In this document: positions 1,836 through 64,000 of the stretch, piece after piece
Layout of the letters: the number at the start of each line of letters is the position of its first letter
Numbering within the stretch: position 1 is the first letter of the stretch
The notes under the pieces: model-generated
The model's input: the letters and a program-made list of their open reading frames with translations, nothing else
Told to the model about the DNA's origin: nothing
The model's database searches: none
Source: Methanobacteriota archaeon
GTDB taxonomy: Archaea > Thermoplasmatota > Thermoplasmata > SG8-5 > JAGLSY01
Direction: 5' to 3'
DNA length: 64,000 bases
Assembly (NCBI GenBank): GCA_020696385.1
Contig: JAEHCQ010000002.1
Span: 256,001-320,000, forward strand
Program-made: the position numbers and the translations under genes

Positions 1836-2396
1836 ATGGACATGGTATTTCATATTCAGATCAAGCCAGACCATCAATACAGGGTGGATATGTGCAAGAT
1901 CAAGGAACCTTTTCTGGAATTCAATTCTGGTCAGATGACCCTGATACTTCCAGAGGCTGCCAATCAAGATGAGGCGGTGAAAAAGCATGTTGCCTGGATC
2001 AGCAAAGTGCATGGCAATGTGCTTTATTCCCTTCAGCAAGCGGAAGCAAAGTCCCTGAAGACCAGAACCCAGGCGGATTTCAGACAGTATGTGTGGGAAT
2101 TAGCAGAGGCTTATTCCACCGAGCTGGGTGTGGATTTTTACAAGATAAAATTTAAAAAATTAGATGATAAATGGGCGAGTTGCGATACTGGTGGCAATCT
2201 CACCGTCAATACATTACTGAAGAAATTACCGGATGAGTTGATCGAATTTGTCATATTTCACGAGGTGGTGCATCGCCTGGAGATGAACCATGGCAAGAAT
2301 TTCTGGAAGCTGATCAAACAGAAATATCCCGATCACAAAAAGTTCGATATGGAGCTTTTCGTGTACTGGATGATGGTGGAGAAGATCACGAAGTGA
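1836..2396 (+). CDS. M48/YgjP (DUF45) family zinc-motif hydrolase
   Basis: KWASC...LTVNTLLKKLPDELIEFVIFHEVVHRLEMNHGKNFW matches the DUF45 HExxH...NH..FW signature. Confidence 0.8.
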   Translation: MDMVFHIQIKPDHQYRVDMCKIKEPFLEFNSGQMTLILPEAANQDEAVKKHVAWISKVHGNVLYSLQQAEAKSLKTRTQADFRQYVWELAEAYSTELGVDFYKIKFKKLDDKWASCDTGGNLTVNTLLKKLPDELIEFVIFHEVVHRLEMNHGKNFWKLIKQKYPDHKKFDMELFVYWMMVEKITK

Positions 2397-2481
2397 GTTC
2401 AAATCTCCCCAATTATGAATAAATATAATAAGAGCCACTCGGGAGTTCAAATCTCCCCAGTTTTGAATTAATAAAAATAAG
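2395..2481 (-). repeat. Duplicated and inverted copies of the tRNA-Thr 3' end (period about 48-49 bp)
   Basis: GAGTTCAAATCTCCCCA at 2395 and 2443; AATAAGAGCCACT occurs twice. A 22-bp perfect inverted repeat pairs 2440-2461 with tRNA positions 2486-2507. Confidence 0.85.
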
Positions 2482-2584
2482 AGCCACTGGGGAGATTTGA
2501 ACTCCCGACCTACTGATTACGAATCAGTCGCTATTTAGCGTTCTTTGGCTTTTAGTCCAAAGAAAACCGCTAAGCCACAGTGGC
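2482..2584 (-). tRNA. tRNA-Thr(CGT) with 31-nt non-canonical D-loop intron (position 20/21, 2535..2565)
   Basis: Acceptor GCCACTG/CAGTGGC, anticodon arm ACTGA-TTCGTAA-TCAGT, T arm GGGAG-TTCAAAT-CTCCC. Removing 2535..2565 restores the D arm GCTTAGCGGT|ATAGC. BHB: AGCG/CGCT helix with GT^T and AA^A bulges. Confidence 0.9.
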
Positions 2585-2643
2585 ATTTGGATTTTAAGAG
2601 ATAATTGGCAATGGGTTATAAAATTAATTGGGCAAGTGAGTGC

Positions 2644-3888
2644 TCACACCACACTGAATTTTAGCTTCGATCTCTTTAGTGATTCAACAACCGGCAATGG
2701 CTTTCCAGACAGCATGCTGATCAACGCTCCTCCGCCCGTACTCAGATGATCCACACGTTTTTCCAGGCCCAGCCTCTTGGCCACCGTGCCAGTATGGCCA
2801 CCGCCAATGACGGAGAAAGCATCCGAATCCGCTATCGCTTTGAATATCTCGATAGTGCCAAAGGAGAATTCCTCTATTTCGAAGACTCCCAATGGACCAT
2901 TTAATATCACATTATTGGCCTCATTGATATGTCCTATGTAATTGACTATAGTGTCAAGACCTATGTCGAATATCGGAAATTCAGATGGTAATTGATCCAC
3001 AGTGGCTCCATTTCTGGTACCATTATTATTCAAGGCAACATCTGTGGGGATCTGTATCTGGCCTGGATATTTTTCAAGAAGGCTCTTTGCTACGGCCACA
3101 TAGTCTTCATAGTCTGGAACTTCATTCTCAAGCACATTATCATTACCAGGTCCGACATCTATTCCCTTGGCCTTCAGGAAGATGGTCGCGATCAATCCGC
3201 CAGTCAATATTTTATTTGCAGATCCGGCTTCCAGCATATTACCCATGACCTCGATGGAATCATCGACCTTGGCCCCTGCGAGTATGGCCAATGTGCCCGA
3301 GCCCTTTTTCATCACCTTGCCAAGGACATCCAGCTCCGTCTCCATGAGCCTGCCCGCGATGGCCGGGATATTCTCCCCAAACCCGACAAGGCTTGGCTGC
3401 GCCCTGTGTGCCGCGGCATAGGCATCGCAAACATAATAATCAGCAACTGATGATAATCGGGATATCATGTGGGTCTTTGACAATACTTCTGGTTTAGCCT
3501 TTTTCAGCATGAGCTCCTCGGCATAGAATCTTGTATTTTCAAGCAGGATGATATCTCCATCCACCATCTGTTCTATTGCCTGGATAGCTCTGGAATCAAA
3601 TAATGAATCGACATATTTAACTGGGCGTTTGGCCAGCTTGGAAAGGCGAATGGCATGATTCTTCAGATTGGTGAAGTCCTTCTTGCCAGGTTTACTCTGA
3701 TGAGCGAGAATGATGACCTTGCTTTTCGATAGATCATCCAGGGTCTCTATATGTGCCCTCATTCGAGAATCGTCCAATATCTCTCCAGAAACTGGATCCA
3801 TTGGAGAATTTATATCCAACCTGAGTAAAACTCTTTTACCTATCAGATTGAAATCATCCAGGACAAAGAAGTTCCTTGAAATGGTCAT
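2644..3888 (-). CDS. pgk: Phosphoglycerate kinase
   Basis: VLLRLDINSP, ILAHQS, LLENTRF, DAYAAAHRA, GAKVDD, NGPLGVFE, GGGHT, STGGGAL; ATG 3888 follows a GGGGAG RBS. Confidence 0.97.
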   Translation of the reverse strand: MTISRNFFVLDDFNLIGKRVLLRLDINSPMDPVSGEILDDSRMRAHIETLDDLSKSKVIILAHQSKPGKKDFTNLKNHAIRLSKLAKRPVKYVDSLFDSRAIQAIEQMVDGDIILLENTRFYAEELMLKKAKPEVLSKTHMISRLSSVADYYVCDAYAAAHRAQPSLVGFGENIPAIAGRLMETELDVLGKVMKKGSGTLAILAGAKVDDSIEVMGNMLEAGSANKILTGGLIATIFLKAKGIDVGPGNDNVLENEVPDYEDYVAVAKSLLEKYPGQIQIPTDVALNNNGTRNGATVDQLPSEFPIFDIGLDTIVNYIGHINEANNVILNGPLGVFEIEEFSFGTIEIFKAIADSDAFSVIGGGHTGTVAKRLGLEKRVDHLSTGGGALISMLSGKPLPVVESLKRSKLKFSVV

Positions 3889-3984
3889 CACTCCCCACAT
3901 ATCACTTGATTATTTAATTATTTTCTATCCGAATAGATGAATGAGCGATCGATCATGATCGAGTTATGGTATTCTGGTAGATGA

Positions 3985-4758
3985 TCAATCAGGGCTCAGG
4001 TCCTCGCCACCGAAGAAAAGCATCTGGATATAGTTGTATAGATCTTCTATGCCCTCCATTTTTGTCGAGGATATCGGAATAATGTCTCGATGCATGTTGA
4101 AGCTCTCCATAGCTCTCAAGAATTCAATGGCCGCCAATGGTTTGGATGATTCCATATTATCATACAATGAGCTCATCAGCATATCTGGCTCCAAAGACCA
4201 TTCCACTATCTGGCTGAGATCCTCCTTGGTGACCGTATCTGATTTTCCAATGATATTGAGCAGCGGTGTATTGAACCTGGAGTTTATGGATGAGGATAAT
4301 AGGAACAATGATACCAGACCAGATGGATCTCTAGCCACCATCGGGTCCATGATGTAAGCGAGCACACTCTGGCCGGATGTGAAGGAGTTCAAAAAGACCT
4401 CACTGGCTTTCCTGAAGGCGAAAAGCTCGATCTGCCCAGGTGTGTCAATGAGCACATAATCTGACCTGAAAGAACCAATGACTTCAGCAATTTCATGAAA
4501 ATGAACAGCGGCTAGGTCCGCACATACGATCTGAGCACCATTGGGCCCCAGGCCATATTCTTCCATGACCTCGGGGACCGAGACCCAATCACGAATATCC
4601 ACGTCGGGCTGATATCCGAGCTTGTCAACGCCTGGATCCAGGTTCACGGTTATCGCGTTCAAGCCCCTTTCCTCCGCCCAGTTCTTGTAAGCCTGGGTGA
4701 GTGTGCTTTTTCCGGATCCTGCTGTTCCGATGAAGTATATTCTGGTTTCTTCTGCCAT
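3985..4758 (-). CDS. GPN-loop GTPase (archaeal PAB0955/XAB1 family)
   Basis: GTAGSGKST, NLDPG, YGLGPNGA, DTPGQIELF. Confidence 0.93.
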   Translation of the reverse strand: MAEETRIYFIGTAGSGKSTLTQAYKNWAEERGLNAITVNLDPGVDKLGYQPDVDIRDWVSVPEVMEEYGLGPNGAQIVCADLAAVHFHEIAEVIGSFRSDYVLIDTPGQIELFAFRKASEVFLNSFTSGQSVLAYIMDPMVARDPSGLVSLFLLSSSINSRFNTPLLNIIGKSDTVTKEDLSQIVEWSLEPDMLMSSLYDNMESSKPLAAIEFLRAMESFNMHRDIIPISSTKMEGIEDLYNYIQMLFFGGEDLSPD

Positions 4759-5261: not shown

Positions 5262-5359
5262 ATATGGGCCCGTAGCAGACAGGCCCGTAAACACCAAAAC
5301 AATACAATATGGGCCCGTAGCCGACCTACGGTCCCGTAAATAAGAAAACAATACAATAT
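5262..5359 (+). repeat. Two upstream tandem copies of the tRNA-Lys 5' end plus leader
   Basis: GGGCCCGTAGC at 5266, 5311 and 5360 (tRNA start). AAAACAATACAATAT precedes copies 2 and 3. Copy 2 is followed by its inverted copy CTACGGTCCC. Confidence 0.85.
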
Positions 5360-5433
5360 GGGCCCGTAGCTTAGCTAGGTAGAGCGCCCGGCTCTTAACC
5401 GGGTGGTCTTGGGTTCGAATCCCATCGGGCTCG
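5360..5433 (+). tRNA. tRNA-Lys(CTT)
   Basis: Acceptor GGGCCCG/CGGGCTC, anticodon arm CCCGG-CTCTTAA-CCGGG, T loop TTCGAAT. Confidence 0.95.
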
Positions 5434-5456
5434 TATTTATTTATTTTATATTTTGA

Positions 5457-5595
5457 GAGCCCGAATGCCAGCAATGAATATTCTATTGGGATTCGAATGA
5501 AGTTCGACGAGTGATTTTCCGAGTGGAAGGAGGAAAATCGCAAGCTGGACTTGTTCGCTCCGCAAACAAGTCCAGGATCTCATCAGGCTCGTATT
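5457..5595 (+). repeat. tRNA-trailer element copy 1 (antisense T arm + two-hairpin core + duplicated tRNA 3' end)
   Basis: Antisense pieces GAGCCCGA and TGGGATTCGAA. Core AAGTTCGACGAG..GATTTTCC/GGAAAATC..CTGGACTTGTT/AACAAGTCCAG. ATCTCATCAGGCTCGTATT is a 17/19 match to the tRNA end. Confidence 0.85.
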
Positions 5596-26335: not shown

Positions 26336-26448
26336 TGGACCCATCGGGATTTGAACCCGAGCCCTCCTGCTGGTTTGGGATTGGACGAATTATGTCATTC
26401 GCCCAAACCATGCAAAGCAGGCGATCTTCCAGTCTGATCTATGAGCCC
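26336..26448 (-). tRNA. tRNA-Ala(TGC) with 39-nt canonical 37/38 intron (26372..26410)
   Basis: Acceptor GGGCTCA/TGGGTCC with G3:U70; anticodon CCTGC-TTTGCA|A-GCAGG; BHB TTTG/CAAA helix with CA^T and CC^A bulges. Confidence 0.93.
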
Positions 26449-26608
26449 ATGTCGTGTCCCAAGTTTGATATTCCTATACCGAATGTCAAACTTGGTCTGT
26501 ATAGGTCGGAAAATACCCAATGGATAAAACGTTTTCGGATGATTGTCAATAAACATCAATAGGTGAACTGTTAAATACAATTTGGAATTACAGGATTAGT
26601 GATATAAA

Positions 26609-26683
26609 GGGCGCGTGGCCTAGCCAGGATATGGCGACAGCCTCCTAAGCTGTAAGTCAAGGGTTCGAATCCCTTCGCGCTCG
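26609..26683 (+). tRNA. tRNA-Arg(CCT)
   Basis: Acceptor GGGCGCG/CGCGCTC; ACAGC-CTCCTAA-GCTGT; AAGGG-TTCGAAT-CCCTT. Confidence 0.95.
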
Positions 26684-26712
26684 CTTTTATTTATTTTGGA
26701 TTCGTAGAGTAA

Positions 26713-26819
26713 GAAGGATGAGAACAAAGTTCGACGAGATTTATCTGAATATGATGAAGATAAATCGAGCTGGACTTGTTAGCTTTGCGAACAAGTCCAG
26801 GATCCCTTCGCGCTCGCTT
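26713..26819 (+). repeat. tRNA-trailer element copy 2
   Basis: Degenerate antisense T arm GAAGGATGAGAAC. Core AAGTTCGACGAG, GATTTATCT/AGATAAATC, CTGGACTTGTT/AACAAGTCCAG. Exact 18-bp copy of the tRNA end (26802-26819 = 26669-26686). Confidence 0.88.
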
Positions 26820-26918
26820 ATATTTTTTCTAAATGTGACTTTACAAATTAACCCTACACATTTAGAAGATCTAACACGTTTCCAACCATATTACCAGTAA
26901 AGTGTTTGATTCGATTTT

Positions 26919-28100
26919 CTACTTGATATCGATCGCCCTCTCCGGGCATAGCTCGTGGCAGCAAAAACATCTGATACATTTCTCATAATCCATCACAGCC
27001 AGCTTATCGATTATCTGAATACATTCTCTGGGGCACGCGCGCATGCAGTCACCACACCCGATGCACTTGTTCTTCGAGGGCACTGGCTTGTTCATATATC
27101 TTTTCACAAGGAATCGCCTGAGAGGTCGGGGTATTCTCATCCCACCCTTCTTTTTCCTGACTGCTGGCTCGAACTTGATGAATGGGAAAGTATCCAACTT
27201 GTCTCCTACGATCTCTATATCGGATAATTTGCCCGATACAAGCTTTCTGCTTATCGCATTTCGAAGTATCGGCAGATCTTTTGGGTCGAGTCCTACAAGA
27301 TTGGTGGCAATGATATCCAAAGCCGGGGCACTAGTACTGGCTATGATAGCTCCCGCCTTTTTCGGCTCTCCGCCTGAAGGCCCTTTGCCCTCCATCCCCA
27401 CAACTCCATCCATGATGGCCAGTGTGGGATTTATGAGCTGGGTCAGATCAAGAAGCATATCGGAGAAATCATCCGGATCTGGCAGTGTGGAATGATAAGT
27501 GGCCTTGGCCATACCTGGCACGAAGCCATAGCATATCTTCGTGGCTCCTGTGAAGCCGGTCAGCATATGTGTCTTCAGTTTGGGGAGTGTGATTATCTTA
27601 TCCACTTTGGGAACTATATCGAGAATTTCGAATGATTTGATAAGTTTGCCATTCGGATATGGGGTTCGTATCCCACCCAGGCCCATGTAGAGCTCGGCAT
27701 TGGTACCTTCGAGTGCCTGGGTGACACCCGATTTCTTGTAAGCGCGCTCAAGGCGACCTTTAGAGGCGGGACCGCCAGGGCTATCGCCCACGATAACCTT
27801 ACAGCCTGCTTCTTCCAGGATCTCGATTACCGCTTTTATCACAGCCGGGTGAGTGGTCACCGCCTCCTCTGGCTTCGAGCCCATCAGCAGATTGATCTTG
27901 ACAAATACACGATTGCCAGGCTTCACAAACTGCAAAATACCGCCCAGGCCATCTATGGATGATCTGATGGCCTTCGACACACTTATAGATTCATAATTAT
28001 CACATTTGACTATTGACACCACTGGTTTATGATTCGCACTGCCTGGATCGCTCATATTATCACTCTCTATTGGGATCTTTAAGATGAAAGGTTGTGTCAA
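26919..28100 (-). CDS. DUF362 family protein with C-terminal 2x[4Fe-4S] domain (start probably near 28055)
   Basis: VFVKINLL, VTTHP, GDSPG, LPKLKTH, DGVVGMEG.GP; CIGCGDC..CP and CIRCFCC..CP. Confidence 0.9.
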   Translation of the reverse strand: MTQPFILKIPIESDNMSDPGSANHKPVVSIVKCDNYESISVSKAIRSSIDGLGGILQFVKPGNRVFVKINLLMGSKPEEAVTTHPAVIKAVIEILEEAGCKVIVGDSPGGPASKGRLERAYKKSGVTQALEGTNAELYMGLGGIRTPYPNGKLIKSFEILDIVPKVDKIITLPKLKTHMLTGFTGATKICYGFVPGMAKATYHSTLPDPDDFSDMLLDLTQLINPTLAIMDGVVGMEGKGPSGGEPKKAGAIIASTSAPALDIIATNLVGLDPKDLPILRNAISRKLVSGKLSDIEIVGDKLDTFPFIKFEPAVRKKKGGMRIPRPLRRFLVKRYMNKPVPSKNKCIGCGDCMRACPRECIQIIDKLAVMDYEKCIRCFCCHELCPERAIDIK

Positions 28101-31102: not shown

Positions 31103-32329
31103 TCATTTTTTGAGAAAGGGTAATCTCGTTACTATCCCATTAAACTTCCTTTTACCTTGTTGGAGGATGAGTTCAGTTCCTGCTTTGGCGTATTTTCTAT
31201 CGATCCTGGCTAGAGCGATAGCTTTTTCCAATGATGGGGAGAAATTACCACTGGTGACTGTGCCTATAGGCTCGGAGGAAAAAATATCTGATCGAGGGGG
31301 AGACCCCTCTGTTTCCTGTGGAAATTGATTATCAGCCTGTGAAGGGTCTGCGATACCTATTGGAGGAAGAATTTGTGCACCCGGGCGGGCTACACCTTTG
31401 CCTTCTAACATGATTCCGACAAGTCTTTGGTGAAGTTTCTCCTCTTTTTGTTTTACCAAAACATCCTTTCCTATGAAATCATGATCCCATTTGACCACCC
31501 AGGAACAATTGGATTCTAAAGAGCTGTGAGATCCTGTGAAATCCGTACCTGAAAGAAGGTATCCCATTTCCAATCTCAATGTATCACGAGCTCCAAGGCC
31601 GATCGGGATAAGACCATCCCCAGCTCCAATCTTGAATAAAAGATTCCAAAGTGGAACAGCATGTTCGTTCTTTATTATCAGTTCCATACCTTCTTCTCCC
31701 GTATATCCAGTACCTGATACTGTGATTATATCATCTACTTCGAAATCTATATCATTTGAAGGTAATATGATATCTTTGTCGATCTCGATATTATCAGAGT
31801 TAGTTGATATTACATTATAATAAGCAAATTTGAATCTCCCAATATCTCTGATACCTTGACCAAATATCTTGGAAAGAATATCCGCACTTTTTGGACCCTG
31901 GACTGCTAAACAAGAATAACTATTTGATAAATTATTAACACCTTCACTGATATTTTTATTCAACCAGGAATGTATCTTATCAATAGAAGCAGCGTTTGGT
32001 ACCATCAGATATTGTTCATCTCCTGTTTTGAAGACAATGGTATCATCTATTATCGCTCCTTTTTCATTTAGGATATGGGTGTAAACAGATTTACCAATAT
32101 TAATCGTGGAAATATCATTCGTACATAATTTTTGTAACGATCTGGATTGAGCCCCCCCATTTATCAGGATCTCACCCATATGAGATACATCGAAAATACC
32201 AGCAGCTGTTCTTACTGCATGATGCTCCTTCAGAATGCCTGTAGAATACTGGATGGGCATCATCCATCCATGGAAATCTACCAGCTTTGCATCCAATTTT
32301 TCATGCTCATGATAAAGTGGGGTCTTCAT
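31103..32329 (-). CDS. gcvT: Glycine cleavage system aminomethyltransferase T
   Basis: KTPLY, FDVSHMGE, AVQGP, TGYTGE, GLGARDTLRLE, VTSG.FSP. Confidence 0.93.
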   Translation of the reverse strand: MKTPLYHEHEKLDAKLVDFHGWMMPIQYSTGILKEHHAVRTAAGIFDVSHMGEILINGGAQSRSLQKLCTNDISTINIGKSVYTHILNEKGAIIDDTIVFKTGDEQYLMVPNAASIDKIHSWLNKNISEGVNNLSNSYSCLAVQGPKSADILSKIFGQGIRDIGRFKFAYYNVISTNSDNIEIDKDIILPSNDIDFEVDDIITVSGTGYTGEEGMELIIKNEHAVPLWNLLFKIGAGDGLIPIGLGARDTLRLEMGYLLSGTDFTGSHSSLESNCSWVVKWDHDFIGKDVLVKQKEEKLHQRLVGIMLEGKGVARPGAQILPPIGIADPSQADNQFPQETEGSPPRSDIFSSEPIGTVTSGNFSPSLEKAIALARIDRKYAKAGTELILQQGKRKFNGIVTRLPFLKK

Positions 32330-33756: not shown

Positions 33757-33759
33757 ATA

Positions 33760-34203: not shown

Positions 34204-35451
34204 GTGACAGCCACGATCTTCGATAACCATCTTAAAACACCCTCGATATTCAAGAGGGACAGGGATATCTTGAGAGCATCATATATCCCGGAGAAGCTAT
34301 TGCACAGGGATGACCAGATCAGCCAGATAGCCAGTATACTCGTTCCTGCTTTGAGAGGTGAAAGGCCATCCAATATACTGATATTCGGGAAAACTGGAAC
34401 CGGAAAAACAGCCACTGCCAAATATATGAGCAAAGAAATAACCAAAGCAGCTCAATCGGATCTCACCAAATTCAATGATGTTGTTTATATTTACATCAAT
34501 TGCGAAATAGTGGACACCCAATATGGTGTTCTGCAGAATATCGGAAATAGATTCATAAAGGATTTTGATGAGCGGATACCCCCAACTGGCTGGGCTACTG
34601 AAAGGGTATATTATAAATTGAAAGACGAGATGGATTCCAAACCGAGGGTGTGTATCGTCGTCCTGGATGAGATCGATAGGTTCGTGCATAAGACTGGGGA
34701 TGACGCTCTTTACCGCCTTACGAAGATCAATGACGAGTTCGAAAATGCGAAGATGTGTCTGATCGGCATATCCAATAATATGAAATTCACAGAGCTTCTT
34801 GATCCCAGGGTGAGGAGTAGGCTGGGCGATGAAAAAATGGTATTTCCACCATATGATGCGGATCAATTACGGGATATTCTCGCACAGAGGGCGGAACTGG
34901 CATTCGCGGAGAATGTGGTAGATCCAAATGTCCTATCACTTTGTGCCGCTGTTGAAGCCAATGAGCAAGGGGATGCCAGAAGTGCTCTGGACCTTCTCAG
35001 AGTGTCGGCGGAGCTGGCGGAGCGGAATCGTGATACCCAGGTTACGGAGCAGCATGTTTACAAGGCCAAGAACAAGATAGAGTTAGATTGCGTCATAGAG
35101 GCCGTTAGAACACTCCCTCTTCAATCCAAAGTCATACTCTTGGGTATTCTTATGAATGAGGAGATAGGCCAATTAAAACTCACTACAGGCGATGTTTATG
35201 CCACATACAAGGAGCTTTGCAGAAAGACCGGCCTATCGATGGTTACACAACGCCGCGTTACCGATCTGATATCCGAGCTGGATATGATGGGCATCATAAG
35301 TGCGAGGGTGAAATCATTTGGCAGGGGTGGAAGGACCAAGGAAATTGTTTCCAGTGTCCCCTTGCTGGAAACCAAATCCGTGCTTTTGAGAGATCCGATG
35401 ATCGAGACACTGGGTAATTATAAGTTAAAACATCAAATGACCCTGATGTGA
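34204..35451 (+). CDS. cdc6: Orc1/Cdc6 replication initiator
   Basis: SYIPEKLLHRD, GKTGTGKT, YINC, VLDEID, GISN, FPPY, GDAR, C-terminal wHTH with GRGGRT; GTG start after a GGGGGAG RBS. Confidence 0.96.
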   Translation: MTATIFDNHLKTPSIFKRDRDILRASYIPEKLLHRDDQISQIASILVPALRGERPSNILIFGKTGTGKTATAKYMSKEITKAAQSDLTKFNDVVYIYINCEIVDTQYGVLQNIGNRFIKDFDERIPPTGWATERVYYKLKDEMDSKPRVCIVVLDEIDRFVHKTGDDALYRLTKINDEFENAKMCLIGISNNMKFTELLDPRVRSRLGDEKMVFPPYDADQLRDILAQRAELAFAENVVDPNVLSLCAAVEANEQGDARSALDLLRVSAELAERNRDTQVTEQHVYKAKNKIELDCVIEAVRTLPLQSKVILLGILMNEEIGQLKLTTGDVYATYKELCRKTGLSMVTQRRVTDLISELDMMGIISARVKSFGRGGRTKEIVSSVPLLETKSVLLRDPMIETLGNYKLKHQMTLM

Positions 35452-35492
35452 GAACTATCAGTCTCTAAAGATCCTGAAAGTTCTCATTCCAG

Positions 35493-35561
35493 GCCATAGT
35501 CCCAAACACGCAGCGGTACTCTCGCTGCGATCATTTACTGAGAAAATGATGGGACTACGGC
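35493..35561. repeat. Three-way-junction palindromic element between convergent genes
   Basis: GCCATAGTCCC/GGGACTACGGC closes the hairpins CGCAGCG/CGCTGCG and ATCATTT/AAATGAT. Confidence 0.6.
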
Positions 35562-35624
35562 AACCGACTACTCTCCAAATATTTTCACATATTCATTGAA
35601 GATAATATGTGGGTCCTAAAGATA

Positions 35625-36761
35625 TTATTTATCTAACTGGCGCCCACAGCTAGGACATTCACTCTCTGTATTTTCCACCAATACTTCACAATGTGGACAT
35701 GGAATCTTGACAATTTCCTTGATGATTATAGTTTCTTTCTCTTTAATCACATCAACAGATGTTTCATCTTCTCCAGTAGGCTTTTTAATTGTAGTATCCG
35801 ACACATCTTCAGCTGAAGGGTCCGACATATTATCTGGATCTGGAGTATGATCTGAAGAATTCTCATCTGTTTTTTCAGATCCATCCCCCTCTTCCTCTAT
35901 AGTTTCCTCATCCTCCCCACCCTTCTTTTTCCAGATCAAGGGCAGGCCGAAATCAATGAACAATGGAACACCTATCAAGATCACGATAGATATCATCAAA
36001 TTTGGCCAGCTGTTTGGAGGGGCAGGTCCTCGTATACCACCAGTGAATGTCAGTTTGATAAGGCCGAACCAAGGTAGTTCACCCACGGCTCTTCCAACCA
36101 CCCATTCTTCTTTGATAAGCATGTATCCACCGGATCTTTGGTCATAGGCAGGGACATTATTATCCCCCATCGTGACGAATCCGCTATGAGGCTCCACACC
36201 CGCATGCCGGAAATTGAAAATAATACCCTCGATACCGATTATCACATCTCGATCCTTGTAGCCATATCCCTTCAATATGATCTCTGAGGTGACATCATAT
36301 AGTCCAAGTTCTGGGGCATCGAAACTGAGATTCTCATAATCATACCTATCGGAGTTCAGTGAACTCACCTTTGAGTCATTGAGCTCCAGCCAGAGAACCG
36401 CTCTGTGAATGATGGGTGTTAATTCGGAGATACCATTCGGTTTGTATATGATGACATCCCCGAACTCATCATAAGTCCGATAATTGCTCCCCTCCCCTTC
36501 CACATAGGTCACTATTTTATCTCTTGAGGGCGAGTCTTTGACAAGTACCATATCACCAGTGTCGATGACGCCTATTTCACTGTCGATACCGTGCATCATA
36601 CTGCCGGATTCAACTACAACGACCGGAGGCCATACCTGACAATAGGCCAGAAGCACACTCATAATGATAGCCACGACAATGATCGCCGCGATCACATCCT
36701 TGGCCACTCCGATGGCCGTTTTCTTCACAAGCTCTTTATTCATCGTAAACCCTGTGGACAT
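35625..36761 (-). CDS. Signal peptidase I (S26, Sec11-type) with acidic linker and C-terminal zinc ribbon
   Basis: VVVESGSMMH, IDTGD, PIIHRAV, TMGDNN; CPHC..CPSC. Confidence 0.9.
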   Translation of the reverse strand: MSTGFTMNKELVKKTAIGVAKDVIAAIIVVAIIMSVLLAYCQVWPPVVVVESGSMMHGIDSEIGVIDTGDMVLVKDSPSRDKIVTYVEGEGSNYRTYDEFGDVIIYKPNGISELTPIIHRAVLWLELNDSKVSSLNSDRYDYENLSFDAPELGLYDVTSEIILKGYGYKDRDVIIGIEGIIFNFRHAGVEPHSGFVTMGDNNVPAYDQRSGGYMLIKEEWVVGRAVGELPWFGLIKLTFTGGIRGPAPPNSWPNLMISIVILIGVPLFIDFGLPLIWKKKGGEDEETIEEEGDGSEKTDENSSDHTPDPDNMSDPSAEDVSDTTIKKPTGEDETSVDVIKEKETIIIKEIVKIPCPHCEVLVENTESECPSCGRQLDK

Positions 36762-36835
36762 CGCAAATTATTGTTCATATATAAAATAAGCCCAAAGAAT
36801 CATAAACACCTTTCACTTCCACTCTCTGATAAGAT

Positions 36836-37309
36836 ATGAAAGAATCTACAGAGAAGAAACATGGTTCGAATACCAGACCCACAAAGACCGAATATTTCAT
36901 GGATATGGCCACTCTCGCCTCCAAGAGATCCACATGCCTCAGGCGCGCGGTGGGCGCGGTCCTCGTGAAAGATGGCCATGTTCTTTCAACCGGATACAAT
37001 GGCGCACCCAAAGGGCTGGATCACTGTGAAGTTACAGGTTGTATTAGAGATCGGATGAACGTTCCCAGCGGAGAAAGACATGAGCTTTGTCGGGGAGTGC
37101 ATGCGGAACAAAACGCGATAATCCAGGCCGCGTATTTCGGTGTCAGTGTGAATGGGGCGAAGATATACATCACGAACCATCCATGTAGTGTGTGTGCGAA
37201 GATGTTGCTGAACGCGGGCATCGTGGAAGTGATCTACAAGGGCGATTACCATGATGAACTGGCTGTGGAGATGCTGGAAGAGGGCGATATCAAGATCTGG
37301 CGATTCTAA
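36836..37309 (+). CDS. dCMP deaminase / ComEB family
   Basis: RSTCLRRAVGA, TGYNG.P, HAEQNAI, PCSVC. Confidence 0.93.
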   Translation: MKESTEKKHGSNTRPTKTEYFMDMATLASKRSTCLRRAVGAVLVKDGHVLSTGYNGAPKGLDHCEVTGCIRDRMNVPSGERHELCRGVHAEQNAIIQAAYFGVSVNGAKIYITNHPCSVCAKMLLNAGIVEVIYKGDYHDELAVEMLEEGDIKIWRF

Positions 37310-37367
37310 GTTCCCTTATGGTAATTCCCTCGCATCATCCCCAAAATATATAGAGAATTTGGTAAAG

Positions 37368-38435
37368 TTATATATCAATCTTATAAAGGGCTTCTTTTCT
37401 TTTTCTTATTATCGCAAGAGATGTTTTTTGTTGATCTATATTTGCAGACATTGTTGGAGATAAATATATGTTTTTCATTGCACCAAGAGAGCCTGGAAAT
37501 TGATGAGTATACCTATTTTCCCAATCAAGATGCTCGTCAACAGAAGAAAATACTTGGAAAAGTAAGATATTATATCTTCCTAAACTTGCCTCCAAAACAT
37601 AGGGAACACATGGATCAGATTTTATGGCCTTGATAACATTATTCATTGATTTTTTAATCTCAAGTAGACAATAAACTAAAATATGACCTGATGGGACGAA
37701 AAATTTTGGAAATCTAGATACTGGCATTCCAATGACCCTCTCTTTAAGAAGGCTGGAAATACGACGCTCAACGGTTTTCCTGTTGATCTCTAGTTTTTTT
37801 GATAATAGATTTTCATTTGTTCTGATGCTTCCCCCCATCATTAGTTTTTTCAAAATCTGAATGTTCAGATTATTCATCTTATAGCCATTCAACATCAACT
37901 TTTCTCCTTTCTGATACCTCTCCTCCATTCGAAAGATAGGAGAATATGGTTCATATTTGATAATGTGATTATTACTAAAATAAGAGCCACTGGCGGGATG
38001 TCTATTATCTCTTGGCGATATCTCTTTTTCAGCTACTATTTTCTTCCTCCAGTCAACGTATGAGGATATGTCTTTAAAAAACATAATTAAGAATGTGTTG
38101 TATTCCTCATCTTTAAGATAATAGGCACCAAAAATATGTTCATTCTCAATAAGGAATTTGGAGATACTCTCTGTCCTGGGCAGATCCGCTCTCACAATCA
38201 CCATCAAAGGATGCTCTTGATGTAGTCTAATAAATGGGTATACTGGCTTATTTATTATTTCATGGTCGAACAATGCCTGGACTTGGTCTCTTATCGTATC
38301 TCGATGTTTGTTCAGATCCCTGGCTAAACCACTGATATTTACCTCAACTCCAACTCCATTGCAAATATTTTCAAGAATAGTCAAATTTAATTCATCATCC
38401 AACAGCGCCGACATAATGCAGGATTGATTGGGCAC
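37368..38435 (-). CDS. Tandem Lrp/AsnC-like transcriptional regulator
   Basis: Two HTH modules (NISGLARDLNKHRDTI; NENLLSKKLEINRKTVERRI), each followed by a RAM-like domain; divergent from the redox operon. Confidence 0.7.
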   Translation of the reverse strand: MPNQSCIMSALLDDELNLTILENICNGVGVEVNISGLARDLNKHRDTIRDQVQALFDHEIINKPVYPFIRLHQEHPLMVIVRADLPRTESISKFLIENEHIFGAYYLKDEEYNTFLIMFFKDISSYVDWRKKIVAEKEISPRDNRHPASGSYFSNNHIIKYEPYSPIFRMEERYQKGEKLMLNGYKMNNLNIQILKKLMMGGSIRTNENLLSKKLEINRKTVERRISSLLKERVIGMPVSRFPKFFVPSGHILVYCLLEIKKSMNNVIKAIKSDPCVPYVLEASLGRYNILLFQVFSSVDEHLDWENRYTHQFPGSLGAMKNIYLSPTMSANIDQQKTSLAIIRKRKEALYKIDI

Positions 38436-38715
38436 TATAAGTAATTAACCACTTATTTATACGCTATTTTGCACATATTTTTGTGCTAATTACCGTCAAT
38501 ATTAATGCCCAAAAAACCATAGTAGAACTCAACACTAAGGGTACATAGTAATTAATTTATGTACATTTGTAGCGAAATATCGGCTCGAAATGACCGGGCA
38601 ATATTAATAAGTGTTTTCCCATCGCACTCGCACATGGAAATATACAATGATTCACTCACCCAGCCAAATCCTAAAATGATCTCATTGTATCTTGAAGCTA
38701 GAAAGGTGATTGATA

Positions 38716-39255
38716 ATGAATAGTACACAAATAGATCCTCAGGTCAAGGAACAGAAGGAAGCTACATTTCTAGAGGATGCTGGCGAGATGGATAGAAAAG
38801 TGGAACAAATACTCAATGACTATGGCAGAAATAAGAGTTCATTGATATCCATTTTACTGGATATACAATCCGAATACAATTATCTGCCAAAGGATGCACT
38901 GGTTATGGTATCTGACAAACTCAATATCCATCTAATTGAGATATACACGGTTGCCACGTTTTACACGGTATTCAGCTTGAAACCAAGAGGGAAATACGTA
39001 ATCAATGTATGTGTTGGTACCGCCTGCCATGTGAGGGGTGGACGCAGGATAGTTGATAAAATTCAGAAAGAACTGAATATCGATGTTGGCGAAACAACCG
39101 GGGATATGCAATTCACCCTCGAAACAGTCAGGTGCCTTGGTGCATGTGCTCTTGGTCCAGTCATGGTTATAAATGGAGAATATTATGGCCAATTGAGTAC
39201 CAAAAAAGCAAATACAGTACTTCAAACATATATAGCAAAGGAGGTCGAGGCATGA
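38716..39255 (+). CDS. NuoE/HydC-like [2Fe-2S] subunit
   Basis: VATFY.VF...PRG, VCVGTACHVRG, CLGACALGP. Confidence 0.92.
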   Translation: MNSTQIDPQVKEQKEATFLEDAGEMDRKVEQILNDYGRNKSSLISILLDIQSEYNYLPKDALVMVSDKLNIHLIEIYTVATFYTVFSLKPRGKYVINVCVGTACHVRGGRRIVDKIQKELNIDVGETTGDMQFTLETVRCLGACALGPVMVINGEYYGQLSTKKANTVLQTYIAKEVEA

Positions 39256-39668
39256 TACATTTAAAACTCAAGTGCCATCATTGCGGTGAAAGCTTGATGG
39301 ATGAGGATTTTGAGATTGATGAACACCCCAGTGTGAAAATTCTTGTTGCATCCAATGGGGATACAGGGATATTACATTTAAGTTCACGATATGGGAGCTT
39401 TAATAAGGAATCTGAAATAGATATACCAGATGGATATATTGTCAAAGTCTTTTGCCCACACTGCAAAGATGATATGAAGAGTAGCAGGTTGTGTTATGAA
39501 TGCAAAGCTCCCATGATCACATTTGAATCTATTCTTGGTGGATATATTCGATTTTGTTCTCGTTGGGGCTGCAAGAAGCATCTTGTTGAGTTCGAGAATT
39601 TGGAATCAGAACTTAGGGCATTTCATGCGAAATACACTCTCTCGCCTCAAGGGAGGGTGAAAAAATGA
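39252..39668 (+). CDS. Small Cys-rich protein of the redox operon (function unknown)
   Basis: ATG overlaps the upstream stop; CHHC, CPHC, CYEC, CSRWGC..H motifs; ATGA-coupled to the next gene. Confidence 0.8.
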   Translation: MIHLKLKCHHCGESLMDEDFEIDEHPSVKILVASNGDTGILHLSSRYGSFNKESEIDIPDGYIVKVFCPHCKDDMKSSRLCYECKAPMITFESILGGYIRFCSRWGCKKHLVEFENLESELRAFHAKYTLSPQGRVKK

Positions 39669-42600
39669 GTGTAAAAATTAAAAATAATGATGATCTAATT
39701 GAATTGAGAAAATCTATATTGAGTAATAAAGTTCAAGACAAACCTTGTATAGTGGTTGCAACTGGAACTTGCGGCATTGCCCAGGGTGCTGATAAGGTTA
39801 TTATATCTCTCAAAAAAAAACTTAAAGAACACGGTCTAGAAGAAAAAATTGAAATAAAAACAACAGGATGCCATGGCTTCTGTCAGATAGAACCCTATCT
39901 AACTATTTTCCCAGAAGATGTATTTTACACAAATGTAAAGCCAGAGGATTCAGAAGATATAATATCAAAAACCATAATTGGTAAAGAGATTATAGAACGA
40001 TTATTATATTTGGATACAAAGACGAACTCTACAATAATGAAGGAAAACGATATACCGTTTTATAAAAAACAAACAAGAAATATGTTAGAGAATAATATTC
40101 TTATAAATCCATCTAACATTGATGACTACATAGGCATAGGTGGTTATTCGGCTTTGGGGAAAGTTTTTAGCGGTATGCCTCCAGAAGATGTCATCGAGGA
40201 GATTAAAAATTCAGAGCTGCGGGGCAGAGGAGGAGCAGGATTTCCAACTGGTTTTAAATGGGATTTCTGTAGAAGAGCCAAAGGCGATATGAAATACATT
40301 GTCTGCAATGCCGATGAAGGAGATCCTGGCGCTTATATGAATAGAAATCTCCTTGAAGGCAATCCACATAGTGTTCTGGAAGGGATGTTGATCGGTGCAT
40401 ATGCAATGGGTGCTTCTGAGGGGATAATTTACATTAGACACGAATATCCACTAGCCGTAAAAACCATTAAAATCGCAATGGACCAGATGCGAGAATATGG
40501 ATTACTCGGGAAAAACATACTTGGCAGTGGTTTTGATTTTGACATAAGTATAGTTCCAGGTGCTGGCGCCTTCGTTTGTGGTGAAGAGACCGCATTAATA
40601 GCCTCGATCGAGGGAAAAAAAGGAGAACCCAGGCAGAGACCGCCTTTCCCGGCTCAGAAGGGGATATTTGGCAAACCCACGAATATAAACAATGTCGAAA
40701 CTTGGGCAAATATCCCACTCATAATCAATAATGGTGCAGAATGGTTTTCAGAAATTGGAGTAGAAGGAGCCAATGGTACAAAGATATTCTCTCTGGTTGG
40801 GAAGATAAACAACACTGGATTAGTAGAAGTTCCATTGGGCACGACACTAAAGGAAATGGTTTATGATATCGGCGGCGGAATACCCAAGGGCAAGAAATTC
40901 AAGGCGATCCAGACAGGTGGGCCATCTGGAGGCTGCATACCTGGGAATTTACTCTCAACTCCAATTGATTATAATAAATTGGCTGAAGCAGGCTCGATTA
41001 TGGGTTCTGGCGGTCTTGTTGTCATGGATGAAGACACTTGCATGGTGGATGTGGCAAAATATTTCCTTGGTTTTCTGCAGGAGGAATCCTGCGGCAAGTG
41101 CATGACCTGCAGAGAAGGGATCGAGAGATTATTGGAAATCGTAACTGATATTACTGAAGGTAAAGGTGAAATGAGTGATATCGATCTATTGGAGGAATTG
41201 GGTAATGTCGTGAAGGACGCATCCATGTGTGGACTCGGCCAGACCGCTCCAAATTCAGTGCTTTCCACATTGAGATATTTTATGGACGAATATGAGCAGC
41301 ATATCAAATACAAGCGATGCCCCGGTGTAGTATGTAAAGAGATCATATCCTCGCCATGCCAACATGTTTGTCCAATAGATACAGAGGCTCCTTTATATAT
41401 ATCATTGATAGCCGCAGGGCGGTATGAAGAGGCTTTCAACATTATCATGAAAGATAACCCCCTCTCATCGGTTTGTGCTAGAGTATGCAGTCACCCATGC
41501 GAGACAAAATGCCAGGCTGGTAAGTTCGGCGATCCTATTTCAATCAGGGGACTAAAGAGATTTGTTACAGATTATGCCCAGAAGAATGATTTGAAATACT
41601 TGCCTAAAAAACAAGAATCAAAGAAGGAAAAGATCGTGATTATCGGCTCAGGGCCAGCTGGATTGACTGCCAGTTACTACCTGGGAATGAATGGATATAA
41701 TGTTACGATTTTAGAATCCCAGCCCGTTGTGGGCGGAGCATTATCCATCTGTATACCTGAATATAGATTGCCTAAAGATATTCTAAATCATGATATTGAT
41801 AATATCAGAGAAATGGGTGTGGAAATAAAGAATAACATTACCGTTGGCAAGGATATTTCTTTCGAAGAATTAAGAAATAATTATGATGCAATATTCATAG
41901 CCACTGGCGCTCATAAATCTTTGAAATTGGGAATTCCAAATGAAGATGCCGATGGAGTTTTACATTCTATGGATCTTCTCAAAGATGCGAGTCTGGGAAA
42001 GGATATAAATATTGGACCTCGAATAGGAATTATTGGAGGGGGCAATGCGGCGGTAGATGTAGCCAGAGTGGCTAGCCGTCTTGCTGGCTGCGAAGAGGCT
42101 ACACTGATTTACAGGAGAACGAGGTCGGAAATGCCTGCTTTCGAAGAAGAAGTGGAGGCATGTCTCGATGAAAGCGTCAATATGCAGTTCCTAACCGCTC
42201 CAAAGAGTATATTGGCTGAAAATGGTAAGATGACTGGACTTGAATGTATCAGGATGGAATTGGGAGAACGGGATGCTTCCGGCAGAAGGAGACCGGTCCC
42301 AATCGAGAATTCTGAATTCATATTAGAATTGGACAACCTTATAATCGCAATCGGTGAACAACCAGATATTTCATTCTTGGATAAAATTGAAGGAATCAAG
42401 GTCACAAGAGGAAATGCTATCGGTGTTGATAAGGAAAAATACACAACAGGGATAGATGGAGTGTTTGCAGGAGGCGATGTGGTAACTGGCCCGAATACAG
42501 TTATAGAGGCAATGGGATCTGGGAAAGTGGTTGCTGGATTGATAGATAAATACCTTAAAGGGGAGCCTGTAGAACGTGAATACGAAATTACCAGACCATC

Positions 42601-63138: not shown

Positions 63139-63164
63139 TTGTATTCGTGAAGTCACGGATATCA

Positions 63165-63473
63165 TTAATGTAGTGGCCTTCTGCATTTGGAACATATTAT
63201 CTTACAATCTTTCTTGCATTTCGTGCATTTGCCAGCCATGAATTTTTCCTCGACCGGGGCAGAGCAACAATCCGACACAGTATCCACGATGTGTCCACAG
63301 TATTTACAAGGGTGCTGTTTCGGCTTCTTAGGTATAAGGACTTTGGTGAAAAGATAATAGCCAATATACAGTCCGACAATTACCAGACCCAGCAGTATGA
63401 GATAGGTGAAAAGGAACCCGCCTCCGTCATCTTCCCCCGGAGTGGTCTGCAGATAATACAGCAGATTGTACAC
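63165..63473 (-). CDS. Single-TM protein with Cys-rich (Zn-finger-like) domain
   Basis: TM helix then CKYC, CC, CTKC, CSKC. Confidence 0.6.
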   Translation of the reverse strand: MYNLLYYLQTTPGEDDGGGFLFTYLILLGLVIVGLYIGYYLFTKVLIPKKPKQHPCKYCGHIVDTVSDCCSAPVEEKFMAGKCTKCKKDCKIICSKCRRPLH

Positions 63474-63595
63474 GAAATACGGTAATCGTAATTCTCATAA
63501 AAGACTTTGGTAAGGTATAATATGATTAATCTTGACCAATTCAATAAGAAAACTTTAAGATGGAAAACATATTTCCACGGCACACGAGACAATAT

Positions 63596-63668
63596 ACGGG
63601 TGTGGTGTAGCCTGGTATCACTTTAGCTTGCCAAGCTAAGAACTCGGGTTCAAATCCCGGCACCCGTA
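63596..63668 (+). tRNA. tRNA-Gly(GCC)
   Basis: Acceptor ACGGGTG/CACCCGT, TTAGC-TTGCCAA-GCTAA, T loop TTCAAAT. Confidence 0.92.
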
Positions 63669-63711
63669 CTTTATTTTATCAGATAGGGCTATGGATTTCA
63701 GCATCCGTACT

Positions 63712-64000
63712 TCATTTTTCACTTACATCTGAATGGCTTAATCCAGCATGTTCTTTCAGAATGCACCTGTCCATGATGACCTTCAATCCAGCTTCCCTGG
63801 CCTTGTCAGCAGCACGATTATTCACAATCCCCTCCTGCATCCAAATGATCTTGGCTCCTTTCTCTATTGCCTGATCAACTATCTCAGGCACAGCGGCGGA
63901 TTTTCTAAATATGTCCACCACCTCGATATCATCCGGAATATCGAGCAAGGTCTGATAGGATACCTCGCCCAGGATATTATCATGCATTGGGTTGACTGGG
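63712..64000 (-). CDS. CoA-binding protein (YccU-like), 5' end off the window
   Basis: PVNP...Y.TL.DIP..IEVVDIFR, IWMQEG, V.MDRC. Confidence 0.88.
   Translation of the reverse strand, partial: PVNPMHDNILGEVSYQTLLDIPDDIEVVDIFRKSAAVPEIVDQAIEKGAKIIWMQEGIVNNRAADKAREAGLKVIMDRCILKEHAGLSHSDVSEK

Follow-up and report, generated by a model that had tools for sequence, protein, structure and literature searches.

The closest described counterpart of the elements analysed here is the RtT repeat of Escherichia coli K-12, present at tyrT-tyrV as units of ~178 nt that each lie behind a tRNA and are stacked in tandem. To our knowledge, the function and origin of RtT repeats are unexplained; the E. coli rtT RNA has been suggested to act as a tRNA-like RNA of the decoy or regulator type. 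Here we analyse a 64,000-nt stretch of DNA (the window, C22:256001-320000) from the genome of a Methanobacteriota archaeon (GCA_020696385.1, referred to as G000). Several of its tRNA genes are accompanied by small cassettes built from direct and inverted copies of the end of the adjacent tRNA, often enclosing a hairpin-forming cargo, and the layout of these cassettes is that of RtT.

In the E. coli unit, an inverted tail GGGGAAGGAT, which is the reverse complement of ATCCTTCCCC, is followed by a degenerate inverted T-loop (GAGAAG), by GGTTCGA (tRNA positions 52-58), by a cargo (CTCGAGCG..) and by a direct tail starting in the T-loop (AATCCTTCCCCCACCACCA). The arms (GGGGAAGGAT..AATCCTTCCCC) allow the unit to close on itself, as do those of the archaeal cassettes, and the TC-to-GA variant of the inverted T-loop occurs in both. 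The archaeal units 3' of a tRNA likewise end in a tail copy that starts in the T-loop (Arg, 26802-26817; Lys, 5577-5592; Thr, 2431-2439), carry an inverted tail or T-arm upstream of the hairpin cargo, and can be stacked in tandem (two units at Thr; also Arg(UCG) and Leu(CAG), and up to five in relatives of genome G007). The annotated rttR RNA of E. coli is 171 nt long; its start is 8 nt past tyrV, and its end coincides exactly with the CCA that closes the first tail copy. In the available portion of one report, its mode of action is given as unknown (10.1101/2024.07.17.603846). The archaeal elements differ from RtT in that their cargo is unrelated except for a short motif, their spacers contain T-runs, about half of all tRNAs are affected rather than one operon, and 5' mirror forms occur. 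No match to RF00391 (RtT) was found in the window at the gathering score or on 26560-26900 at E<=10, and Rfam identified nothing beyond tRNA in the cassettes. Since the layout is shared without a match to RF00391, the cassettes are best described as RtT-like in design and not as members of that family.

Two other classes of element share part of this architecture. MITEs (miniature inverted-repeat transposable elements) and the REP/BIME (REPIN) elements associated with RAYT transposases are likewise short sequences without coding capacity that form hairpins, occur in multiple copies, are polymorphic among relatives and sometimes nest in one another; among the cargo families described below, one is itself a dispersed MITE-like repeat, and a single-copy Y1 transposase is conserved in the order. 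Unlike these elements, however, the two principal cargo families (R1 and R2) are nearly confined to tRNA ends, their terminal inverted repeats are not element-encoded but copies of the target, their duplications are long and variable rather than short and fixed, and no R2 hairpin flanks the Y1 gene within 1.5 kb at 12 loci; only the third family is dispersed. Attachment (att) duplications made by elements with tyrosine integrases resemble the cassettes in that the 3' part of the tRNA is directly repeated from the T-loop onward and the tRNA is left intact. The T-loop was reportedly described by Williams in 2002 as a classical sublocation of integrase att sites in tRNA genes. Here, unlike at att sites, no gene lies between the repeats, the arms are inverted and tRNA-specific around a shared cargo, and there are 5' mirror forms.

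Archaeal precedents are more distant. As far as the available text of PMC5217627 goes, the palindrome CGTTA-N9-TAACG, for which no function is known, accompanies about half of the Methanopyrus kandleri tRNA genes on their downstream side, at a distance of ~10 bp; it is archaeal, specific to tRNA 3' flanks and similarly frequent, but it is one fixed sequence with no copy of the tRNA's own end, and no tail duplication is reported in that text. Casposons also target tRNA 3' ends with a relatively long target duplication, according to the part of PMC4779613 available, but the cassettes carry no polymerase cargo, their arms are target-derived and no Cas1 was found in G000. A 1.8-kb recombinase element has been linked to tRNA splitting (PMC3293823, in part). 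In the accessible sections of PMC9897764, tRNA fragments appear only as the ends of integrated elements of 9-23 kb (one of ~121 kb) or as a CRISPR spacer, and hairpins or inverted copies are not mentioned. Our literature searches found no description of such cassettes in archaea.

Own-end copies at tRNA genes

G000 is a 2.28-Mb draft in 50 contigs, 94% complete, and its archaeal identity is established by introns, an Orc1/Cdc6 gene and gene content. Its tRNA set (n = 43) comprises 46 ARAGORN calls plus tRNA-Thr(CGU), minus four dubious calls with giant introns. The first and last 32 nt of each tRNA were aligned in both orientations to its own 300-nt flanks, with the flanks of the other 42 tRNAs in G000 as the control; control 99th percentiles were 24 for direct 3', 22 for inverted 3' and 21 for direct 5' copies. 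These values were reached or exceeded by direct 3' copies downstream of 11/43 tRNAs (one of which, Ser(GCU), merely reflects a neighbouring tRNA-Ser), by inverted 3' copies downstream of 10/43 and by direct 5' copies upstream of 6/43; the four wrong-side control combinations gave 0-1/43. Some own-end signal is present at ~20 of the 43 tRNAs, where ~0.4 would be expected by chance per test. The pattern had been proposed in a first-pass annotation of the window; it exceeds the controls and is broader than first claimed.

Comparable frequencies are found in relatives. In G002, a member of the same genus, direct 3', inverted 3' and direct 5' copies accompany 12/37, 7/37 and 3/37 tRNAs, respectively. 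The corresponding values for G007, from another family of the same order, are 9/22, 6/22 and 5/22 (counted over 20 regions covering 21 of its 30 Rfam tRNA matches). The same layouts recur in the independent assemblies G001, G002, G003 and G007, which makes misassembly unlikely.

Anatomy of the cassettes

Proceeding outward from the tRNA, a 3' cassette consists of a T-rich spacer of 12-25 nt, an inverted tail copy (up to positions 73-53), 2-4 nt, often a direct copy of the 5' half of the T-loop (G53-A58), the hairpin cargo and a direct tail copy. The direct copy begins at A59 (A58 in TTCAAAT loops) and reaches the end of the tRNA, at times continuing up to 17 nt past it; its left edge lies at tRNA position -16/-17 in 11 cassettes. 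In a second copy of the T-loop, the cargo separates position 58 exactly from position 59. Inserts measure 45-250 bp and contain no open reading frames (ORFs). The tail copies lack CCA and extend into the genomic T-rich trailer, by as much as 17 nt in Arg(UCG), which indicates that their source is DNA or the primary sequence and not mature tRNA. For the same reason we rejected a retro-copy of mature tRNA, by way of a primer-binding site or a stop at m1A58.

The 5' form is a mirror image. It consists of a copy of the upstream spacer joined to tRNA positions 1-11 to 1-22, then a short loop or hairpin cargo, an inverted copy, a spacer of 20-24 nt and the tRNA itself. This form is found at Lys in the window and elsewhere at Glu(UUC) (twice), Gln (three times), Thr(UGU), Asp, Ser(CGA) and Thr(GGU).

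Tandem stacks in G000 outside the window occur at Arg(UCG), in the form of 33-nt tail-plus-spacer repeats, and at Leu(CAG). At C44:62000-62420 (minus strand), the tRNA tail GAATCCGGTCCCTCGCACC occurs three times around two stacked MITE-like cargos; the tRNA ahead of this array is miscalled by ARAGORN.

Cassettes in the window

Rfam recognises five tRNA genes in the window and ARAGORN three. These genes and the associated repeats are as follows, where R1 is a covariance model built from the core common to the Lys and Arg trailers.

2395-2481, minus strand: Thr trailer, two cargo-less units (own-end alignment and sequence reading)
2482-2584, minus strand: tRNA-Thr(CGU) (Rfam RF00005, 40.4 bits on 2482-2549 only; missed by ARAGORN)
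5266-5359, plus strand: Lys leader repeats, 5' mirror form (own-end alignment and sequence reading)
5360-5433, plus strand: tRNA-Lys(CUU) (ARAGORN and Rfam)
5434-5592, plus strand: Lys trailer cassette (R1 match at 5489-5545, 60.5 bits)
26336-26448, minus strand: tRNA-Ala(UGC), with intron (Rfam)
26609-26684, plus strand: tRNA-Arg(CCU) (ARAGORN and Rfam)
26685-26817, plus strand: Arg trailer cassette (R1 match, 76.6 bits)
26818-26935, plus strand: second small repeat, stacked behind the Arg cassette and unrelated to it (sequence comparison)
63596-63668, plus strand: tRNA-Gly(GCC) (ARAGORN and Rfam)
63669-63719, plus strand: Gly trailer remnant (comparison with the G002 ortholog)

The simplest arrangement lies behind tRNA-Thr(CGU), whose own-end scores are 46 for the inverted copy (99th percentile 22) and 23 for the direct copy. 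This is the minimal form without cargo, in which an inverted T-arm is joined to a direct acceptor tail with a period of 45-49 nt. A spacer (2461-2481) leads to a perfect 21-nt inverted T-arm (2440-2460) and a direct copy of the acceptor tail (2431-2439). Beyond another spacer (2412-2430), the T-arm occurs inverted a second time (2395-2411), here overlapping the stop codon of a YgjP-like ORF. The predicted RNA fold of the trailer has an energy of -48.9 kcal/mol (z -6.7). P-nucleotide footprints or footprints of hairpin excision were considered and rejected on geometric grounds, because what is inverted here complements the entire T-arm exactly and not the bases next to the junction. The tRNA gene itself carries in its D-loop a 29-nt hairpin insert (TTTTCTTTGG..CCAAAGAACGC) that is probably a non-canonical intron.

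tRNA-Lys(CUU) has copies on both sides, with scores of 22 (direct), 22 (inverted) and 24 (5' direct; 99th percentile 21). In the leader, positions 1-11 recur in direct orientation twice (5266-5276, 5311-5321), in both cases with a copy of the spacer ACAATACAATAT ahead of them; the right part continues through a CGAC loop into an inverted copy (5326-5335) and a 24-nt spacer (5336-5359). The same leader layout is present in G002 and G003. The trailer begins with a T-rich spacer (5434-5456), an inverted piece of the acceptor (5457-5464) and an inverted T-loop (5487-5497), proceeds through GTTCGA (positions 53-58; 5502-5507), hairpin 1 (5512-5539) and hairpin 2 (5545-5575), and ends in a degenerate direct tail copy (5577-5592). 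The period of 41-49 bp given for the minimal forms in the first-pass annotation agrees with the 45-49 bp of the Thr and Lys 5' units.

The Arg(CCU) trailer has a direct copy with 16 of 16 tail bases matching at 26802-26817 (score 32); its inverted score is just 14, because the inverted copy is degenerate. A T-rich spacer (26685-26697) is followed by the degenerate inverted tail and T-loop (26698-26719), and these overlap the R1 core GGATGAGAAC..GTTCGACGAG..CGAGC (26716-26770), within which hairpin 1 (26738-26766) displays an 11-nt GA-N7-GA loop. Hairpin 2 (26770-26800) precedes the exact 16-nt tail copy. The cassette is predicted to fold into a four-way junction (z -3.8). The repeat stacked behind it (26818-26935) contains a T-run, the hairpin AAATGTG..CACATTT and ..GTTTGATTCGAT, and has relatives in G000 behind Leu(UAG), behind Asn and at C11:683310.

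The remaining two genes lack a significant signal of their own. The own-end scores of tRNA-Gly(GCC), 15 and 12, are not significant alone. Its G002 ortholog, however, is followed by a complete 150-nt cargo cassette with the tail copy ATCCCGGCACCCGTAC at its end, and the two trailers share the right junction TTCATTTTT..CCAGCATGTTC, so that the window segment 63669-63719 can be identified as a deleted remnant. It retains an inverted and degenerate copy of the T-loop (GGATTTCAGC, 63693-63702) and a tail copy cut down to ATCCGTAC (63703-63710), together with TTCATTTTT, the original spacer. tRNA-Ala(UGC) has no end copies, with own-end scores (12/12/11/10) all below the control 99th percentiles. 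The statement that four of the five tRNAs are flanked by copies of their own ends is accordingly significant for Thr, Lys and Arg, and for Gly it depends on the comparison with G002.

Cargo families

The interior module common to the Lys and Arg trailers is 89% identical over 37 nt and reads GGAT(G/T)(A/C)GAAY-N3-GTTCGAYGAG, followed by hairpin 1 with its 11-nt GA-N7-GA loop, CGAGC and hairpin 2. The R1 model detected 13 copies in four genomes of the genus, a 14th copy was added by a further search, and no copies were found with the model in 18 other genomes of the order. All 14 copies sit 12-110 nt behind tRNA genes, namely those for Arg (three isoacceptors), Lys, Gly(UCC), Gly(CCC), Leu(CAG) and Leu(UAG), every one of which has a TTCGAAT T-loop. 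In G000, 6/6 copies fall on the 16/43 tRNAs with this loop (hypergeometric p = 0.0013). Gly(CCC) follows the same rule across species: the G001 gene has TTCGAAT and an R1 copy, and the G000 gene has TTCAAAT and no R1. Hairpin 1 is 89.5% paired, with compensatory changes in 5/9 pairs; 0/500 shuffles reach this level and slid controls give 36-58%. A C/D-box small RNA reading of hairpin 1 was rejected, since neither the box spacing nor the D box fits. Scans of metagenomes for closer strains, using the tRNA-Arg tail pattern and the R1 motif, returned 0 matches each.

Applied to the 1.7-kb E. coli locus, the archaeal R1 model gives as its four best matches the four RtT units (E 0.002-0.07 in this small search). 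The motif common to R1 and RtT is GGAUGAGA-N13-GUUCGAC-UCGAGC (in DNA, GGATGAGA..GTTCGAC..CGAGC).

R2 is a covariance model of a second cargo family, defined in genus g5 of another family of the order. Its units consist of a ~24-nt spacer ending in ..TAGTC, an inverted tail (positions 62-73), a hairpin with the conserved loop CTATTG-N16-AGTGAAG and a direct tail. At E<=0.001 there are 77 matches in 9/121 genomes of the class, including 7/7 genomes of g5. A tRNA on the same strand lies ahead of 39 of the 44 copies examined, and 18 first copies begin 17-21 nt past the tRNA end; stacks contain up to five copies with a period of ~95-110 nt. Compensatory changes affect 15/18 pairs, with the outer helix covarying because it copies each tRNA.

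Other cargos are shared by smaller sets of tRNAs. One is common to Ser(CGA) in G000 and Cys(GCA) in G002, whose tails have 14 nt in common, and another to His(GUG) in G000 and Gly(GCC) in G002. A further cargo, family 3, is found behind Ser(GGA), behind Arg(CCU) in G001 and behind a tRNA-like gene on contig C50. This family is a genome-wide MITE-like repeat with ~30 BLAST matches on 12 contigs, mostly far from tRNAs. Its copies have defined ends and are flanked by long direct repeats at non-tRNA sites too (36 nt at C33:72660-72940, ~27 nt at C47:165230-165440). The C33 copy lies at the 3' end of an ORF; the 36-nt repeat includes the ORF's stop codon and is accompanied by 15 nt from the left end of the element itself. 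Duplications that are long and leave the end of the interrupted gene intact are therefore not limited to tRNA genes.

The small repeat at window 26818-26935 belongs to a second family that is frequent in tRNA trailers and consists of a T-run, the hairpin AAATGCG..CGCATTT, a further T-run and ..GTTTGATTCGAT. It also occurs in G000 at C11:13689-14044, C22:172989-173038 and C46:58810-58900, and can nest in other cassettes, for example in the long form of the Ser(GGA) cargo. The loose motif ATGCG..CGCAT is not enriched as a genome-wide REP (46 occurrences versus 26-45 in shuffles).

Taken together, the arms of the cassettes are templated by the adjacent tRNA, and the cargo belongs to lineage-specific families common to different tRNAs. 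The first-pass view that copying was local, with no dispersal of a fixed repeat, is right for the arms, whose own-flank scores far exceed those of the other-tRNA controls, but not for the cargo, which is dispersed (14/14 R1 copies behind tRNAs; family 3).

Gain, loss and concerted change

Orthologous sites document both insertion and loss. At Arg(CCU), G003 is empty, with nothing inserted between the tRNA and the downstream gene; G000 is longer by 235 bases, which comprise the cassette and the second small repeat (26818-26935), the latter also missing from the empty site. At the same position G002 carries the R1 core with a different hairpin 2, and G001 the MITE-like family-3 cargo. The Ala(CGC) gene of G000 is followed by a 104-nt insert comprising a new spacer, an inverted T-arm, GGTTCA, a cargo and a tail of 17 nt; in G002 the site is precisely empty, and the sequence of both genomes goes on with TTTTTTTCTT. 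Conversely, Cys(GCA) has a cassette in G002 and an empty site in G000. The two genomes differ by a nested insertion at Ser(GGA), and the Lys cassette of G003 lacks its right half.

The arms follow the tRNA to which they are attached. The Glu(CUC) cargo of G000 is orthologous to that of G002, and the acceptor stems of the two species differ at two pairs (GCTCTCG/CGAGAGC versus GCTTCCG/CGGAAGC). Each tail copy has both (2/2) changes of its own species, indicating that the tails have been kept identical to the resident tRNA after insertion. Similarly, the Leu(UAG) and Leu(CAG) arrays of G002 differ at the single tail base that distinguishes these tRNAs. At the Thr site, G002 has two identical 49-nt units that are unlike those of G000, which points to homogenisation of the tandem units.

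Cassettes are thus gained, lost and stacked in tandem, and sub-modules are exchanged between closely related species. Their arms always match the resident tRNA and change along with it; the T-loop junction is fixed, the spacers are borne by the module and the hairpins are maintained.

Genes for candidate enzymes

A scan of the 48 window ORFs of at least 110 aa revealed no integrase, recombinase, transposase, reverse transcriptase or HUH protein, in agreement with the earlier statement that the window encodes no candidate enzyme. Elsewhere in G000 (94% complete), no match to Cas1 (PF01867, 0 matches), RVT_1 or GIY-YIG was found, and we therefore rejected casposase, reverse transcriptase and GIY-YIG nuclease as candidates. 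The genome contains four Phage_integrase matches, one of them an ordinary integrase directly behind tRNA-Glu(UUC) at a contig end. Within G000, 15-mers from the tails have no distant partners beyond chance (~9 scattered single hits versus an estimated ~8 expected); otherwise they recur only locally or at other tRNA genes with similar tails.

The sole Y1_Tnp (HUH) gene of G000 is located at C50:1968-2396. By NCBIfam, its product is IS200-type (119.5 bits), with a score for the REP-associated transposase of 28 bits, below the cut-off of 80. The gene sits 170 nt upstream of a tRNA-like gene that is then followed by a family-3 copy. In the segment C50:1231-2396, the Y1 gene is followed by a hairpin (CCGCATT..AATGCGG), an incomplete copy of a tRNA and a pair of class-II tRNA-like genes, between which the 3' end of the Y1 gene is duplicated. 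These two genes have a Ser-like body, G73 and the anticodon GAA (Phe), and score 57 bits each in Rfam. Orthologous Y1 loci in other genera have the same tRNA-like gene, with anticodon GAA or GAG.

Of 13 other genomes sampled from the order, 12 encode orthologs of the Y1 protein (54-70% identity). Each has 1-3 matches, and those beyond the first are mostly partial 3' duplicates. Judged from sequence comparison, this distribution would correspond to RAYT-like behaviour. A related class-II tRNA-like gene is found near Y1 in 5/12 loci, and an R2 hairpin within 1.5 kb of it in 0/12, so no physical link between the Y1 gene and the cassettes emerged from the loci checked for R2 hairpins. Beside the Y1 gene in genus g5, loci L044, L045, L049 and L050 contain arrays of ~230-nt units (GTTGAATGCGA..GCATTCGAC..CCGGTAATCGGCAAT..ATGAGATTACCGG) interleaved with partial duplicates of the 3' half of Y1.

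The window also contains an Orc1/Cdc6 gene (34174-35448), within its most AT-rich stretch (32000-40000, GC 0.39-0.40), which may be a replication origin. No obvious relation was seen in the window between the presence of cassettes and the orientation of genes around Orc1/Cdc6.

Origin and function

Our preferred reading, which we hold with moderate confidence, is that the cassettes are RtT-like, small (45-250 bp), gene-less, hairpin-built DNA modules at tRNA gene ends, and that they arise by a selfish or neutral process at the level of DNA. Cargo-less units could be produced by fold-back or template-switch synthesis at the tRNA end: after the tail and spacer, the polymerase would copy the opposite strand of the T-arm, and the palindromic T-stem would provide microhomology for its return in register. 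Template switching of this kind would fit the cargo-less minimal units. The conserved T-loop and T-stem might be the sites of recombination or copy-choice through which cargo passes from one tRNA end to another. Once duplicated, the tails could support unequal exchange, leading to stacking and precise loss, and gene conversion, keeping the arms identical to the tRNA. More speculatively, the boundaries in the T-loop (3' side) and at the D-arm (5' side) would fit a scenario in which the displaced strand of a highly transcribed gene forms a DNA cloverleaf that is nicked or causes stalling.

Several points weigh against this reading. The tRNAs ahead of R2 cassettes (Met, Phe, Gln, Asp, Glu, Arg, Pro) differ widely in their tails and T-loops, and the R2 junctions have only ~4 nt (ATCC) in common, a thin homology for recombination; such varied targets look more like the work of a dedicated, target-templating enzyme. 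The constant spacer of 17-21 nt, the conserved loops (CTATTG..AGTGAAG in R2, ..RTGAAG in R1) and the motif common with RtT suggest recognition by a protein or a function as RNA. The 'empty' sites could be secondary, having formed by deletion between tail repeats, and compensatory changes in arms and stems are equally expected of a functional RNA. Finally, an enzyme gene could be missing from the 94% complete draft.

Possible but doubtful is that the cassettes encode functional tRNA-like RNAs, transcribed by read-through from the tRNA or from their own T/A-rich spacer. The inverted and direct tails would form a helix with one strand identical to the T-stem and acceptor 3' strand of the neighbouring tRNA; the product could be handled by RNase P, RNase Z and the CCA-adding enzyme and serve as a processing signal, a buffer of antisense pairing, a decoy or a regulator. 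In favour of this reading, E. coli rttR is annotated as an RNA ending at the CCA of a tail copy, its unit has the cassette layout and the R1 model picks the four RtT units. Hairpin pairing preserved by compensatory changes, loop motifs and spacing conserved across a genus, and the predicted four-way junction of the Arg cassette point in the same direction. However, the T-runs between the tRNA and most archaeal cassettes should terminate archaeal transcription, and sister species frequently lack a cassette or have a truncated or degenerate one (Gly; Lys in G003; the empty Arg, Ala and Cys sites). The cargo families are moreover genus-specific, the number of copies per tRNA varies from 0 to 5, and there is no Rfam match to the cassettes.

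An unlikely extension of the RNA hypothesis is that RtT-like cassettes form one ancient, cross-domain class of tRNA-end-templated elements with a tRNA-specific RNA function. The RNA would mimic the acceptor/T helix of its neighbour, with the core GGAUGAGA..GUUCGAC..CGAGC, and would be handled by the universal tRNA-maturation machinery. It might act as a decoy or buffer against enzymes or toxins that attack tRNA ends, or as a regulator of pre-tRNA processing, with its arms rebuilt from the target through some form of templating.

Quite unlikely, in our estimate, is that the cassettes are non-autonomous transposable elements mobilised in trans by a dedicated enzyme, for which the IS200-type Y1 (HUH) transposase is the candidate. 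It would nick at T-loop positions 58/59 and 15-35 nt downstream, generating a long target duplication that regenerates the tRNA. The dispersed family-3 cargo, with its defined ends and long flanking repeats at non-tRNA sites, agrees with such a process, as do the constant insertion point and spacer length. So does the setting of the Y1 gene, which lies 170 nt upstream of a tRNA-like gene with a family-3 copy behind it, has orthologs in 12/13 other sampled genomes and is accompanied by a class-II tRNA-like gene at 5/12 loci. Yet the inverted arm is target-specific and is not a product of ordinary transposition, and IS200/IS605 enzymes are not known to make target duplications. The target duplications seen here range from 10 to 36 nt. 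The Y1 protein is furthermore IS200-type (119.5 bits) and not REP-associated (28 bits, cut-off 80), R2 hairpins are absent within 1.5 kb of Y1 at all 12 loci, and no Cas1, reverse transcriptase or GIY-YIG protein was found in G000.

It is very improbable that the cassettes are integrase scars, in which the tails would be attL/attR blocks left by tRNA-integrating viruses or plasmids after deletion of the interior. A direct repeat running from the T-loop to the tRNA 3' end does resemble the classical att sublocation, and one of the four Phage_integrase matches in G000 lies behind tRNA-Glu(UUC). But the inserts are only 45-250 bp, with neither an integrase gene, a kb-sized cargo nor any ORF between the repeats; inverted copies (10/43) and 5' mirror forms accompany the direct repeats; ~20 tRNAs of different identity are affected against four integrase genes; cargo of one kind is bordered by different arms depending on the tRNA; and tail 15-mers have no distant partners beyond chance. 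The first-pass annotation had likewise set att scars aside, and its judgement is borne out by the ORF-less inserts, the inverted copies and the lack of distant partners. Chance similarity, or an artefact of assembly at repeated tRNA-like sequence, is hardly credible, because even though the Gly case alone does not exceed controls and the draft is in 50 contigs, 10-11 of 43 tRNAs are positive where ~0.4 is expected per test, orthologous cassettes exist in four other independent assemblies and the repeats are internal to long contigs.

Implications

The flanks of tRNA genes are usually read as promoters, terminators or scars of integration. In this archaeon, about half of the tRNA genes have structured cassettes with arms copied from the tRNA, on either side of the gene, and both their layout and a short motif are found again in E. 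coli RtT repeats, which have been known for 45 years and are unexplained. The cassettes confuse the annotation of tRNAs and pseudo-tRNAs as well as the prediction of genomic islands from att sites. If they are purely selfish, they would reveal a form of DNA mobility in which the target supplies the material for the terminal repeats, and they would also show that gene conversion is strong at tRNA ends. If expressed, the cassettes would constitute a large hidden class of tRNA-like RNAs.

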